From assembly GCA_013265495.1 (NCBI GenBank), contig MU058213.1, positions 7,332,066 through 7,396,065 of the forward strand: a DNA stretch of 64,000 bases, written 5' to 3'. Origin of the DNA: Vicugna vicugna (lineage: Eukaryota). A program made the position numbers and the translations under genes. The notes under the pieces were generated by a model, which was not told where the DNA came from, did no database searches, and saw nothing but the letters and a program-made list of their open reading frames with translations. Shown piece after piece: positions 3,901 through 54,815 of this stretch; positions within the stretch are counted from its first letter, which is position 1; every line of letters begins with the position of its first letter.

Positions 3901-5534
3901 TCTTAACTACAAAGGCTATCCGAGTCGTTTTACTCTCACAGAATTAATGAACCGCAGGAAATAGCATAAAAGTTTTTTGAGGGGGAGGGGAGGACCACAA
4001 ATTTCTTTTACGTAAGAAGTCGGTATGAAAATCTTAAAATCATTTTGGAAAGACAAAAAAAGTTAAATGCTTAAGAACGAGGATCACGGGGAGGTCTCCT
4101 CCCCTTTATCGGTTGCATATTCTCAAAATGATTAAATTCCACTTCCCGCAAACCCGGGGGAAAAAATTTGCTGTGGGGACGTCGAACAGTAAGATTTCAT
4201 CTCAAGCAGCTCATCTTGGCGTCCAGCGGGTTTCGGCCTGTTAATAATTAATAAAAGAGATGCCACCCAATCTCTAGCGAAGAAAGGCAAAGCTCGGTGA
4301 TCCGAAAGTAAACCCAGCGCAGATACCGAAGTGGTGTCCTTCATCCAGGATTACAACAAACCCTCAGCCTAGCAAACGTTTAACAAGCGCCCGGCGCCCG
4401 CACCGAGGGGCTGAACCCACAGGGCAGTCTGGGTCTGCAAAAATGCTGCGCATTAGGGGAGCCCCGTCCACCGCAAACAGATGGGGCTCTAAATCCCCAC
4501 TCCCAGCGGCCGGGTCTGCGAAGCCGCTCGGGCAGATTATCTACCCGGAGGAACCTGCTGGCGCACAAGCGGACGGCGGGCTGAGTTTCTCCCGGGCTGT
4601 TTGCGCGTCTCGGCTCCTCCGGGCCGCGCAGGCGACTTCCTGCACACCTCCAAACTTTGGCTTTCCCATTAGAAACTTCCTTGACTTGCCATGGTTCCTT
4701 TCCTCCTCACCTGGGAGGACTTGAAGCCAGTCCTCTCTCCGACCAGTCCCTCCTGCCATCCCGCCCCCAGCCTGGCTAGGGACTTCGGATCAGGGCGGAA
4801 GGCCGGGCGAGGAGGTTTGGCGGAGGCTTGGCAGCGACTAGCCCGAGCCCGCCGGCCCGCACACTCGTCTAACCTCCGTCACTGCCCGCGAAGCCTGTGG
4901 GCAGAGAAGTTGCCTCCCCACATCCATCCACAACCCAAAGTATCAAGCAGGGGTGCGCGACGGCTGCGGGCGGCAGCCGAGGGAGTCTTGGCACGCTCCA
5001 GAAGCCCGTCTCGCTCGGGCCCGGGCGCTTTCGGAAGTGGCCGGGGAGGCACGCAGCGCGGACCCGACGCACTTCCCCGGCCAGCGGCCGCCTGGGCGCT
5101 CGGGGCTGCCGGGCCGCCGAAGGGGGAGGGCGCAAGGCCCGGGGCGCTGACCAGTCCCCAGGGATGACACCGCGCCCGCGCGCAAGCTCGGCCCAGCCGG
5201 GCCGCGGCGCCTTCTCTGCGTAGGCCGGAGCGGTCCGGGGTGCGGGCCCGGGGGATCCGCCGCGGGCTCCCCCGGCTTCCTCCGAGCTCCCCAGACCCTC
5301 CCCTCCTGGCCAGAAGCGCGACGACTCCTAGGAAACTTTGTTCGGGAGCCCCGCCGGGTGCCAGGCGGACCCGGGCGACTGACAGGAGCCGGAGGGGGCA
5401 GAAGCGGGGGGTCCATCCCCTGCGCCTTTGCCCCCAACAGGAGGCAGGCGGATCCCGCGGCCGGGCGCACGGGGCGCCGCTGCGGGGGCCTAAACAGCCC
5501 CGGCGGGGCTCCCGTGCCCAGCCCCGGGCAGTAC

Positions 5535-5559
5535 GTGCGACGATCACAAAATACATCAT
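5535..5559 (-). CDS. RORA: RORA isoform alpha4 first coding exon (N-terminus MMYFVI...)
   Basis: Minus strand from 5559 reads ATG ATG TAT TTT GTG ATC (MMYFVI), matching the recalled RORalpha4 start MMYFVIAAMK. It lies in a CpG island after a GC-rich leader. The 3' boundary is tentative: a weak phase-1 GT at 5534-5533 (CAC|GTACTG). The two other RORA isoform exon homologues upstream on the same strand support the call. Confidence 0.85.
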
Positions 5560-5706
5560 TTAAGCCGCGGTGCGGAGTGCGCAGGGAGAGCGGATGGTCC
5601 GACCCCGGAGCCCCCTCTGCCGCCGCCGCGCCGCCGCCGCCCGAGCCACAGCAGCAGCTGCAGCAGCTGCCCGCCCGCCGAGAGCCATCCCGAGCCATAA
5701 GAGGCT

Positions 5707-5746
5707 CCATGTGACCGGCTGACATCACGGCCTTCGCTCTGTTTAC
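5707..5746. promoter_or_regulatory. Proximal motif cluster: E-box (GTCACATGG, minus), CRE/ATF-like TGACATCA, forkhead TGTTTAC
   Basis: CCATGTGAC 5707-5715, TGACATCA 5720-5727 and TGTTTAC 5740-5746, 150-190 bp upstream of the ATG. Motif matches only. Confidence 0.5.
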
Positions 5747-8700
5747 ACCGCGCCCCTCCGCTTCCTCCCCGGGCGGGAGGCGGGCGGCGGGAGGCGGGCG
5801 CGCCCCAGCGCTGCGCCCCGCCCCGCCCCCGCGGGCAGGTGAGCGGCCGCGGCTCCCGGGCGCACCCCGGCCGCCGCCGCCCTCCCGCGCCCCCGGCCCG
5901 CCCGGGCCCCCAGCCTCCTGCCCGCCTCCCCGGGCACCTGTGGCCGCCCGGGCGCTTTCTGCCGGTAGCGCCCCGCAGATCGCGCGTCTGACTACTTTCT
6001 CCCCACGACCCCGTGGGCAAGAGGGGCGCAACCCGACGCTACTTTTCTGCTCCCTTCCAGGATCCCCCAGAGGTGATACATGCGCCAACTCGTTGGCGGA
6101 AAAGAGTTGTTTGTTCGGTCTGGGTGGCTGTAGTCACCCTCACTTCCCACTTCCCAGGTGGCCCCAGCTCTTTTCGGAAGGTAGAGCCCCCTCCAGGGCC
6201 GTGGAGAACGCAGCCACCTGGACTGTTCCCGGAGTGAGGTGGGCGCCTCCTCAGCCTCTCCTGAGAGACTCGGCCTGGGAAGGGGGAACTCCGCCCACCC
6301 AGACGTGGATAACCTTCATCACACCAACATCTAAGGTCCAGGTTTACATTTGTCCCTTCCCCCGGGACCACTGATACCTGGAAGGAGAACAAATACTGTG
6401 TGTGAATCACCTAAATGAACTCCAGTTGCCAGCCGATTTGAGCCACGAATTTTCTAGGCTCTTTCATCTCCAGCAATCTCTCCAGAGGGCCCATATACAA
6501 GGCTTTAGTTTTTCACACCCTAAAAATTGGATGTTGTGGTACTTTGGACAGGGCGGGAAAAAAAACTCCAACCACTTCTAAAGGTCAACTTTGTGAATTT
6601 TAACTTGCAACTAAAACACACCTCCCTCCAAACTTTGAAGCTTAATCCTTTTTACTGGCCTGATGGAAACTTCAATCACATTGTTATTATCAGACGAAAC
6701 TCTTTACTATGAATTTCATATGCTTACATACCCAGAGTCTGCATTCTTTAAAATTTCAGCAGGCTTGTCTACAGTATTGAACATAGCAGAGAAGATGATC
6801 AAAAGCCAAGTTCGCTACCTACTCTTGTTCCTTCACACAGTTTCCATTCTGCTTTCTTTTCTGACGGCCTGTGTTTCCGTTTACAACTTAAAGTATTAGA
6901 CGGTTATTCTTTGTTGCATTCATGGTAATTTAAACAAGGAAAGTCCTCGCATTTCCCCCCGTATAACTGAGTTGTTCTCGCCTCTGATTTGGGCTGTAAT
7001 TTAAAACACATGGAGACAGTCAGCACCGGAAAAGCTAGGATTCAGACACTTCCACCCCCGCACCCCACTTCAAGGCAAAATTTACAGAGTACGCTGACTT
7101 AGAAGGTCAAAAAATTCATTGTACCTTAAATCAAGCTGTAGATTTATAAAAGTTTGATTTAAGCTAAAGTCATTCTAACACAGTTTTTAAAGTTTTTTTT
7201 TATCAAATAAAACCACAAAAATAAGAAATCATAAAAGTGTGAAGCCAAGACCTACCCACGTTAACTCAGCTGTCCAGCCATAGCAAAATGGACAAGAGTT
7301 TCCAAAGAATTAAACATAACCACTGTGATGTTTACAATTATGAAATTAAATCACGCCACGTTCCCATGATGCAACTGCATCTCCTAGTGAAGCAACGCTC
7401 CTCAGTGACATTGACACGATCCTTCATATTTGGTTCCTGAATTCCCTTGTCCTAACGACTTTAACAAGGAAGGGCAATGCACAGCTGTCCTGGTGGTAGG
7501 TCCCGGGTACAATTTCCTTTCCTTTGAAAGAATGGAAAAACGTCAGAGGCTGCATGTTTATAGGGACTTTCTTCCATCTTCACTGCAAATGAATCCAGAT
7601 ATACAACTCTGAAAATTCAGTGTTCCTTTAAAACAGTACCCTGCTTTAGAAAATGATACTCTGAAAATGACCAAATCCATTAGCTCCAGCCTGCCTGTCA
7701 GACATCTGACTCCAAGGTAAATAGTCTTACATTACTAGTAATCGGTATTTATTTCCAGACCATTTCAAATGAAATCGGTAATCGGGAATGACATGTAACG
7801 TGACATGCGCTCCTGCAATTACTAGCGGTAGAACCATTCCTCCTATAGATGTGTCCCCAACGGGAATATAATCTCAGAATATTTATTTGGAATATTTACA
7901 CATTTATTCAACAAAGACATTCCAAGGATAGTGGAATACTGACCTTACCCTTTAGAAATGTATTTCATTCTCACCCTACCACTAACGAGCAACAGAATTT
8001 CAGATATTAAGTCTTAGCCCTCCTGGGTGGCGAGGTGCTATTTGTAATCCATGCCTCTATTAAATGTTTTTTTTTTCATTTTTAACACACCTTTTAACCC
8101 AGGGTATATTATTGTTCTTTATATTAACATTAAGCTCTTGGGAAACTTTGAAAGTAAAAATGAGAGGTTTTTTTTTAAAACTTGTTGAAATAAAAGTTTT
8201 GTACATAATTATGTCCTCAACCAAGTAAACCAGTTGGGAATGAAAGGATCTGTCTTTCACTTCAATACTACCAAACTGGAGACATAAATAATGCACACTT
8301 TAGGGCACACTTTTACCAACTATACATTAAAATGTAGGAATAATTATTTGGATTCCATTAAACACATGCTCATGGAGTACTTACTCTGGGGAAAAAACAG
8401 GGTTAAGCAATATACTCCTTCCATTTGAAGATTTTTTACCAAGTGCGCTAAAAAAGTTAAAAATAATACTGCTTCCATGAGGATAATTAAACAGGATGGG
8501 AATTCTTTACCATGAATGAGATTATATGACATTAATCTCAACTCAAATGTTTCCGTTGGCTAATCTCCGAAAAAGAAGGCACACTGCATACTTATAAACA
8601 GATGTGATTCAATTTGGAGTCCTCCAGAGACAGCCCCACACGGTGTCCCTATGAACAGGGTTTCACGTTGGATCTGTCATTTAGTAAGAAAGTGAAGAGA

Positions 8701-41644: not shown

Positions 41645-41780
41645 ATTGGGGGTGGAAATAATTAGGTATCTTTATTTATTCACATTTATTTATCTATTTT
41701 TAATGGAGGTGCTGGGGATTGAACCCAGGACCTCATGCATGCCAAGCACACACTCTATCACTGAGCCATATACCCTCCTG
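41645..41780 (-). mobile_element. Camelid-type tRNA-derived SINE (Vic-1-like)
   Basis: GGAGGTGCTGGGGATTGAACCCAGGACCTCATGCATGCCAAGCACACACTCTATCACTGAGCCATATACCCTCC is the antisense head with A/B boxes. Confidence 0.85.
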
Positions 41781-42691: not shown

Positions 42692-42844
42692 TTTTTTTTT
42701 TTTTAATTAAAAATAAATTTTTAATGGGGGTAGGTAATTAGATTTACTTGTTTATTTATTTTTTAAACAGAGGCACTGGGGATTGAACCCAGGACCTCAT
42801 GCATGCTAGGCATGTGCTCTACCACTGAGCTATACCCTCCTCCC
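42692..42844 (-). mobile_element. Camelid-type tRNA-derived SINE
   Basis: Poly-T tail, then GGGATTGAACCCAGGACCTCATGCATGCTAGGCATGTGCTCTACCACTGAGCTATACCCTCC. Confidence 0.88.
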
Positions 42845-44788: not shown

Positions 44789-44921
44789 GGGGGAGGGTAT
44801 AGCTCAGTGGTAAGAGCCCATGCTTAGCATGCACAAGGTCCTGGGTTCAATCCCCAGTACCTCCATTGAAATAACTAAATAAATAAAAACCTAGTTACCT
44901 CCCCCACAAAGAAAACCCCAC
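44789..44921 (+). mobile_element. Camelid-type tRNA-derived SINE with TSD
   Basis: GGGGGAGGGTATAGCTCAGTGG...GGTCCTGGGTTCAATCCCCAGTACCTCCA. TSD AAAACCTTTTTCT (44776-44788) / AAAACCTTTTCT (44922-44933). Confidence 0.9.
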
Positions 44922-50430: not shown

Positions 50431-52589
50431 CTTTTTACCAGTGGTTTTTCCACCCTTAATTTTTGTGTTTAGACGTTCTTTTATCTCTTGTATTGAATTC
50501 TTTCTACATAAAAGGTGGCCAAGATGACGTACAAAGAAGACCGTTAAAGATTATTGGAGAAAGAGATCTCTGGCTTTACCGTTTTGGGTCTTAGGAGAAA
50601 AAGGTACAGTGTTAGCTCTGCTTGTGTCTATGAAGGGTGGGGTTCATGTTATGACACAGAAAATCAGAAAGAACTTTCATAATTTCTTGATAGTCACAGG
50701 AACAGTAATATAAAGAAGAGAATTACGTATCTTTTTATTCATCTCAAGAGAAGAAAATTTCCAGTGAGGAGATTAAGACATTTAATGCTGAAAGAGCATC
50801 TCATCTGAGGCTTCTAGGGCACCAGTAAAGATTTCAACCTGTGTGTCTGTAAAAAATTGCCAGAAACTGTCACAAAATGGAAAATGAGAGCCTGCATTAC
50901 GATGGTTCTGCTAGGGTTCTATAAGGTATGTGCTGAAAAAGTTTGTTTTGTGCTTAAGGCTTGTTAATAGTATCTTAGGATGATGGGGTTATCGGTGACT
51001 TTTTTATTTTTGGACGTTTAACTGTATTTTCATACCCCCTCCCCAAATTGCATAGAAGTCTTTTTTCTTAATAATGGTCTGTTAATTAACTTCTGAAAAT
51101 ACAGTACTGGAAGCTTTAGTCCCAAGAAGTGCAATGGTACCAAGAGTGGATTTTCTGTTTTTTTCACCTCTTTTCCTTAATAGACACAGTGACACTAAAA
51201 CTCATCTCATTAGAAGAGGTTTTTTTGTGAAAATGAGAAAGGACATTTCTAAATCAAGTGCTTTTCTTCTGAATAAGATTTAACCCAAAATGAGGTTGGG
51301 GACTGAAAGAAGGTATGAAAAACTACCTCTTAAAATTTCTATTCCTAAAGCTAATAGGAATTCTTTTGCAATTTTTTTTTCCTTGACAACCAAGGATTGA
51401 TACATCTTGCATGTTCAAAAGTAGAGGACTATAAGTCAGTACTCACTGGCTACAAATTTTTTCCCCTGTAAATTCCCTTTTGGTGATACAATTGTGCTAT
51501 TTTACTATCTGAAAAATTTCCGTTTTTCTTTAATGGTCTTTACTTTCCTCTTTTCTTAGCTCTTCTTAATTGTTCTATTTTTCATTAGTAGACAGTTCTC
51601 TCTGGTTGACCAACAGTGACTGGGGGTCAGAGTCATGGACAATAGACAATATCTGGTTTAGTCTGGCTCCAGAAAAGTTAAACTGTGCCTCAGCCTCTAA
51701 CGAGTCACTTGAAGGGTAAGCAACAGTCAGCCCTCCGTGGCAATAATGTCGTTGTTGGAAGCACTTGAGAAAACCTGCTGTAATTTTTTTACACACACAC
51801 CCTCCCACCCCAAAGCAAGTTTATCTTTGTTTTTAAACCATAAACCACACACTGCATTTCTTTTCCATGCCACATTGAAAGGAAATAAAAAGCAAGCGCA
51901 GTACGTATCACTTAAACACATTAACAATTAGGCAACAGTCCATTTCCCCCTTGAACTTTTCATGCTTGTTTTCCTGTCTTAAAAAAACACTTAAAAGCCA
52001 TCAAAGTGAGGGGTAGGGGGCGTGTTGAGCATGGAAAGTCTTGGCTCTACCATGGATGTCCACACAATTTCTTGGAACGAGGCTTCCAGTAGATAACCCG
52101 GTGAGATGGAGGAATTTCTTTCCACTCAGATACTGTCAGGGCCAATGTGCCTTTCAGGAGACTGTCTGTGAGATTCTGAGCATTGAAACTGTAAAAAAAA
52201 TTGAGCTGGACAGATCCTTGCCACCACAGTTTCTGCTAAATATAGATAAGTTGTCATCGCGTTGCACAAGCAATTTCCAGCTACGGCTCCTCAGGAGGAG
52301 ACGCGGGTCCCGGGGCTCATGTCTCTGGTAGTTAAACTGCACAGAGAGATGTGGACCTTGACCTGGGGGTTGTGGGGAGCCAGGGAAGGAGGCAGCATGG
52401 AAACAGGAGAAAGGAGCCTTAGTTCTGGTTAAATATATAATGACACACTAGGGGATACATAGCAAATGAGGGTACTGGCTTAAAATCTCATTAAGCCTCA
52501 ATAACATGGAAGAAAAGAGATGCAGAAGGAGCCCCCCTCCCCCCGCCCCGGAGTCTGTTTTCAAGTTCCTCCTGTCCCACTACCTTGGA

Positions 52590-54661: not shown

Positions 54662-54815
54662 AAAAAATACATTTTATTTGTTTATTTTTTTGTTCTTGTT
54701 TTTTTGAGGTGGATAATTGGGTTCACTTACTCATTTTAATGGAGGGACTGGGGCTTGAACCCAGGACCTCATGCATGCTAAGCACGCGCTCTACCACTGA
54801 GCTGTACCCTCCCCC
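54662..54815 (-). mobile_element. Camelid-type tRNA-derived SINE with TSD
   Basis: TTGAACCCAGGACCTCATGCATGCTAAGCACGCGCTCTACCACTGAGCTGTACCCTCCCCC. TSD GGCCCAGACAATTTT (54647-54661) / GGCCCAGACCATTTT (54817-54831). Confidence 0.9.

Follow-up and report, generated by a model that had tools for sequence, protein, structure and literature searches.

A camelid first exon of RORalpha4, an isoform of RORA, appears in the window (the whole 64,000-nt stretch of DNA analysed here) with a deletion of 108 nt that removes its 3' end and its splice donor. The most probable reading, to which we give odds of roughly 0.62 as a matter of judgement, is that the deletion is false and arose as an assembly or library artefact. 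An artefact is placed first because seamless false deletions in such exons are believed to be commoner than real ones. The features on which the argument turns are these:

about 4201..6000, no strand assigned: CpG island with the RORalpha4 promoter and first exon (GC content, CpG observed/expected)
5560..5830, minus strand: conserved 5' untranslated region and proximal promoter (ORF identity, collinearity)
5541..5559, minus strand: retained coding part of the RORalpha4 first exon, 19 bases (two ATGs, codons 1-6 plus one base)
5540..5540, minus strand: one base, T on the minus strand, replacing 108 nt (ORF alignments, codon spacing)
5529..5537, minus strand: candidate cryptic donor CAC/GTACTG, with the G at 5534, phase 1 (neither -1G nor +5G)
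4882..5539, minus strand: RORalpha4 intron 1, resuming at about intron position 97 and holding a 226-codon frame (camelid-level ORF matches)

A truncated RORalpha4 first exon

An earlier note on this DNA gave a reading of the minus strand here, whose start codon lies at 5559, and described a frame that stays open for 226 codons. Both parts of that reading are borne out by the sequence, with the stop lying at 4879-4881, and the peptide begins with MMYFVI, a start that is common to the window and the read-through proteins P0012, P0016, P0017, P0025, P0026 and P0031. The assignment of the exon to RORA, and within RORA to RORalpha4, is likewise supported, by identity to published primers and by collinear flanks. 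All 19 retained coding bases are found in goat and human RORalpha4 cloning primers (PMC9035992, PMC3726659, PMC8130942), and the mouse RORalpha4 primer is identical to the window from the second ATG onwards. The goat qPCR and mouse primers continue past base 19 with 12 nt that are absent from the window and then enter the next exon. The exon end that the earlier note gave for human and mouse (IAAMK, then a GT donor) is therefore backed by these primers, and by the proteins of other mammals as well; the AAMK codons and the canonical GT donor expected at this point are absent from the window. Resting as they do on published primers, both the identity of the gene and the absence of the exon end are confirmed. 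Two contigs from other mammals (P0039 and P0041) show the normal RORalpha4 splice, whereas the motif of the next, common RORA exon was not found within the 64-kb window, that exon lying outside it.

When set beside the RORalpha4 of goat (NM_001285652.1; PMC9035992) and mouse (ENSMUST00000113624; PMC8130942), the window is alike in its 5' region and in its first 19 coding bases. Known RORalpha4 has an internal CpG-island promoter and the window, too, holds a CpG island with collinear flanks, but its exon is 12 bases short at the 3' end, and both the donor and 96 bases of intron are missing. Across the island GC content ranges from 0.51 to 0.84 and CpG observed/expected from 0.63 to 1.01 in all nine 200-nt bins. 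Translations of the 5' region share 92-98% identity with nine ORFs of other mammals over the first 48% of the query, and the upstream island is collinear with eight of the nine, with offsets of no more than about 15 nt; for P0047, the remaining one, the alignment is confined to a single short stretch. Within the collinear island lie a 108-nt stretch of 92.6% GC at 5803 and three G-quadruplex-type motifs at 5771-5931.

An upstream ATG at 5725 on the minus strand, out of frame, opens a reading frame that reaches the end of the exon and whose translation has 92-98% identity to nine ORFs of other mammals. In unspliced transcripts of other mammals this frame ends at the donor (eight records), and in spliced ones it continues for a few codons of the next exon (two records); in the window it extends to 260 codons because of the gap. 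The frame is a candidate overlapping uORF of RORalpha4, or may be merely conserved untranslated sequence. Also on the minus strand, at about 38840-38720, is a decayed remnant that resembles the first exon shared by human RORalpha2/3: a GTG occupies the place of the start codon, the frame apparently changes twice and a GT donor is retained. Its identity is presumed from one short motif. RORalpha1 and RORalpha4 are the two isoforms common to mouse and human, and the remnant is consistent with RORalpha2/3 being human-only (PMC6479703).

Extent of the missing segment

Between 5541 and 5539 the window has lost the last 12 nt of the exon, the donor AAG/GTGAG and 96 nt of intron, giving a net change in length of 107 nt (108 out, one base in). 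The proposed deletion of the exon end and donor thus stands as far as the loss itself is concerned, but its size is much larger than had been supposed, 108 nt rather than 6. The plus-strand ORFs P0058-P0060 match the window as far as 5539 and resume at 5541, and 36 residues without a counterpart in the window stand in between; the distance from I6 to the intronic His codon of the supposed 5534 donor is 37 codons in nine proteins as against 4 nt in the window. In all 15 non-window proteins that carry YFVI the peptide continues as AAMK-G-E-P, which corresponds to the exon end and the GTGAG donor. This continuation, together with the 37-codon spacing elsewhere, rules out an in-frame shortening by 6 nt with retention of the ancestral donor.

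By solving the two camelid-level reading frames (P0002 and P0046) jointly, 82 of the 96 missing intron bases could be recovered. The recovered piece is 60% G, and 71 of its 82 bases are G or C (0.866, about 87% GC). Judged by motif, the lost piece contains seven runs of at least three G, the last of which ends 14 nt before the right break.

The segment in camelids and other mammals

A phmmer search with the 226-residue frame against 1.84 billion representatives returned 13 matches, and three word-index protein searches returned 19, 15 and 4, under a default length band by which much shorter or longer forms are missed. The matches, one gray whale model among them, are false gene predictions made over the orthologous island of other mammals, and were used as three-frame read-outs of the intact orthologous DNA. 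The whale entry (P0005, KAJ8792867.1), a 286-residue 'hypothetical protein' annotated out of frame across this island, has the look of a spurious gene model. Among the 60 non-window proteins retrieved, 58 are informative on the junction: 37 show the donor, two the normal splice and none the junction of the window. It should be emphasized that many of the 60 share clusters, and thus do not represent 58 independent species, and that none derives from the window's own lineage. Indeed, no ORF from that lineage was returned by phmmer or the three word-index searches in three reading frames. An exact look-up of nine junction-spanning window ORFs in a collection of 15 billion proteins found none of the nine, a result that weighs little because the window's lineage has no ORF at all among the matches.

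The camelid-level ORFs are P0002, with 197 of 205 residues identical to the window, and P0046, with 190 of 198. Both align to the window's intron without gaps over the stretches compared, and both carry the missing intron piece; P0046 appears to begin at the donor GTG, to judge by its first residue and by the G-E codons that other mammals have. Five linked substitutions, consistent in both frames, are common to the two ORFs, which therefore come from one sister lineage, at an estimated distance of about 1.5-2% from the window by residue changes. The change in a RORA isoform that had been raised as a lineage trait can be narrowed to this extent: a camelid-wide loss is excluded because the sister lineage retains the piece.

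A search of sequencing runs (24 rows) used 145 sampled words, of which the 14 DNA runs of the four organisms labelled A-D contain 0.88-0.94. The junction touches about 3.3 of the words, the ceiling on the share if the junction is private is 0.977, and divergence of 0.2% alone gives 0.94, so that shares in this range fit the presence of the junction and its absence alike. Among the other rows were a single sample of organism F with three runs (0.48-0.56) and six RNA runs (0.11-0.41), the latter being left out of the argument.

A real, G-quadruplex-linked deletion that took away the only canonical donor of RORalpha4 and became fixed in a South American camelid lineage, leaving either a natural isoform knockout or dependence on a cryptic donor, is unlikely. 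If it were fixed there, or in the window's species, and the RORalpha4 protein lost, transcripts would enter the intron and stop at 4879 or take out-of-frame donors; they would be degraded or would yield no receptor product, and RORalpha1 would have to serve liver, skin and immune cells. In favour of this reading, the intact camelid ORFs, belonging to a sister lineage, are silent on the window's own, and the features of the junction (a 5-mer repeat in a well-assembled neighbourhood) suit a fixed loss as they suit an allele private to one animal. The peptide after YFVI, however, is invariant in 15 of 15 proteins, the retained 5' part shows no decay (weak evidence over so short a time), and no report of RORA isoform loss in camelids was found in a literature consisting mostly of open-access main texts; the main text of PMC12127551 makes no mention of RORA. 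Fixation of the donor loss would probably be costly and selected against, because RORalpha4 is a conserved isoform and the principal form of RORA in both mouse liver and human keratinocytes (PMC11099308, PMC3726659). Fixed loss of the RORalpha4 protein is a decidedly improbable account.

Artefact or deletion allele

GC-rich first exons and CpG islands are the places where the false losses and false indels of short-read assemblies cluster (PMC9516821), and many New World camelid assemblies have been described as fragmented (PMC12127551). The window resembles the false gene losses of Kim et al. 2022 (PMC9516821) in that a CpG-island first exon is affected, the gene is intact in relatives and the missing piece is GC-rich (about 87% GC). 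It differs from them in two respects: the commonest false losses in that study are missing exons and Ns, whereas the gap here is seamless, and the neighbouring DNA, although of higher GC, is assembled.

If the deletion is an artefact, the GC-extreme, G-run-rich piece would have given few or poor short reads, and the flanking contigs would have been joined across the hole, either because a tiny gap collapsed, leaving a single base, or because a chimeric read produced by template switching bridged the two sides. The animal itself would have a normal exon and donor and ordinary RORalpha4. A one-base gap that is collapsed and then polished would resemble a single foreign base between two blunt ends. 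The presence of the missing piece in close relatives (P0002 and P0046), its extreme GC content of 0.866 and the lack of the window's junction in all 58 informative proteins argue for an artefact, and the warning in the earlier note that an assembly error was at least as likely as a lineage change gains support from the fact that the sister camelid lineage and other mammals keep this GC-rich piece. Against an artefact, the window contains no N in its 64,000 bases, and harder DNA next door, the 92.6% GC stretch and the G-quadruplex-type motifs, is assembled and collinear. The junction itself may also speak against simple collapse. The base at 5540 and the next four bases repeat a 5-mer at the left break, and in about 117,000 trials of simulated blunt collapse the same type of repeat arose in only 1.7%, 3.0% and 6.5% for windows of 4, 6 and 10 nt, respectively, in a test that was picked after the junction had been seen. 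The repeat suits a polymerase event or slippage, which may have occurred in the cell (germ line) or in the tube (library PCR).

Deletions induced by G-quadruplexes (G4) and repaired by polymerase theta-mediated end joining have been described in C. elegans (Lemmens et al. 2015, PMC4654259). A real deletion allele, private to the sequenced animal or segregating, could have a comparable origin: a fork would stall at the G-quadruplex-prone start of the intron, polymerase-theta-type end joining would follow, and repair would leave a loss of 108 nt with a short templated insertion. The animal would probably carry one copy, the assembler would have kept the deleted haplotype, and the allele would abolish the function of RORalpha4 alone, completely or almost so. 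The 108 nt fall within the 50-300 bp of G4-induced deletions, which have G-runs inside, as does the lost piece with its seven, and which occasionally carry templated insertions (PMC4654259). The junction pattern, uncommon under blunt collapse, and the correct assembly of the neighbouring island also speak for such an allele. However, the published deletions come from helicase-deficient animals and mostly end, on the 3' side, no more than 3 bp from the motif (80-84% of single-configuration G4 junctions), whereas the 3' break in the window is 14 nt off the last G-run; G4 motifs of multiple configuration show a wider junction spread (PMC4654259). Rare null alleles of a constrained gene, moreover, are probably few per animal, and the junction has no independent record among the proteins searched. 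We consider a private or segregating allele to be about as improbable as a fixed loss of the protein, and a false deletion remains the preferred explanation.

The supposed donor and the open frame

It had been suggested that splicing might proceed from CAC/GTACTG. The phase-1 GT at 5534 does exist and is the first such site after the ATG; as a working donor, however, it is weak. The site belongs to ancestral intron sequence and lies some 100 nt downstream of the true donor; other mammals carry it as intronic A-H-V-L-P codons. Human 5' splice sites fall into two major classes, AG//GU and //GURAG (PMC11732430); judged by these consensus classes of human U2-type sites, CAC/GTACTG matches neither, having neither -1G nor +5G. 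It is used in 0 of the 60 proteins, a set without members of the window's own lineage.

The open frame holds 11 phase-1 GT sites, the first of them 6 nt beyond the junction, and a fixed deletion might in principle be rescued through one of these, at 5534 or farther away, for example at 5072 or 5063. Use of 5534 would shorten the N-terminus by two residues, while 5072 or 5063 would add about 160. The abundance of sites favours such a rescue, as does the nature of RORalpha4, whose N-terminus is short and which still functions, albeit less strongly, without the N-terminal domain of RORalpha1 (PMC6479703). Yet 5534 lies outside both human donor classes (PMC11732430), and 5063, the only one of the 11 sites with both -1G and +5G, has C at +3 and +4. 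In addition, a phase match is expected by chance in one case in three, and such a splice is seen in none of the retrieved proteins. Rescue by a cryptic donor is thus very improbable indeed, the least probable of the explanations weighed here.

The 226-codon frame was considered as a new coding extension and was ruled out. In 20,000 first-order Markov simulations of this island, 226 stop-free codons arose by chance in 5.3% of cases in a given frame and in 14.4% in any of three; non-camelid ORFs switch frame along 4882..5539, so that the frame is not conserved; and Pfam returned no families for either of the two frames tested, this one included.

Other matches

Four tRNA-like Rfam matches (41704-41775, 42768-42839, 44793-44865 and 54740-54811) are copies of one short repeat family, which we take to be most likely a camelid tRNA-derived SINE. 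A weak Rfam match to snoZ6 at 52323-52411 on the plus strand (37.2 bits against a cut-off of 35) is probably chance or a decayed copy. A metagenome scan with the 19-base exon start gave 13 matches, all of them chance and without flanking similarity; viral contigs searched with the right flank gave none. A literature match for the N-terminal motif was discarded as a chance string.

Implications

If the deletion is an artefact, a seamless hole of 108 nt without N would lead annotation pipelines to call RORalpha4 lost here. If it is real and fixed, an isoform with the same N-terminus in all 15 other records that show it would have been lost or rewired in nature. The RORalpha4 promoter is reported to be activated by hypoxia through HIF-1 (reviewed in PMC11099308), and RORA has been put forward as a candidate target of selection in highland Ethiopians, the Amhara (PMC6560271). 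Such a loss, if true, would mean that high-altitude animals lack the form of a clock nuclear receptor that is inducible by hypoxia and dominant in liver and skin, and the separate roles of RORalpha1 and RORalpha4 would become testable in a living mammal.
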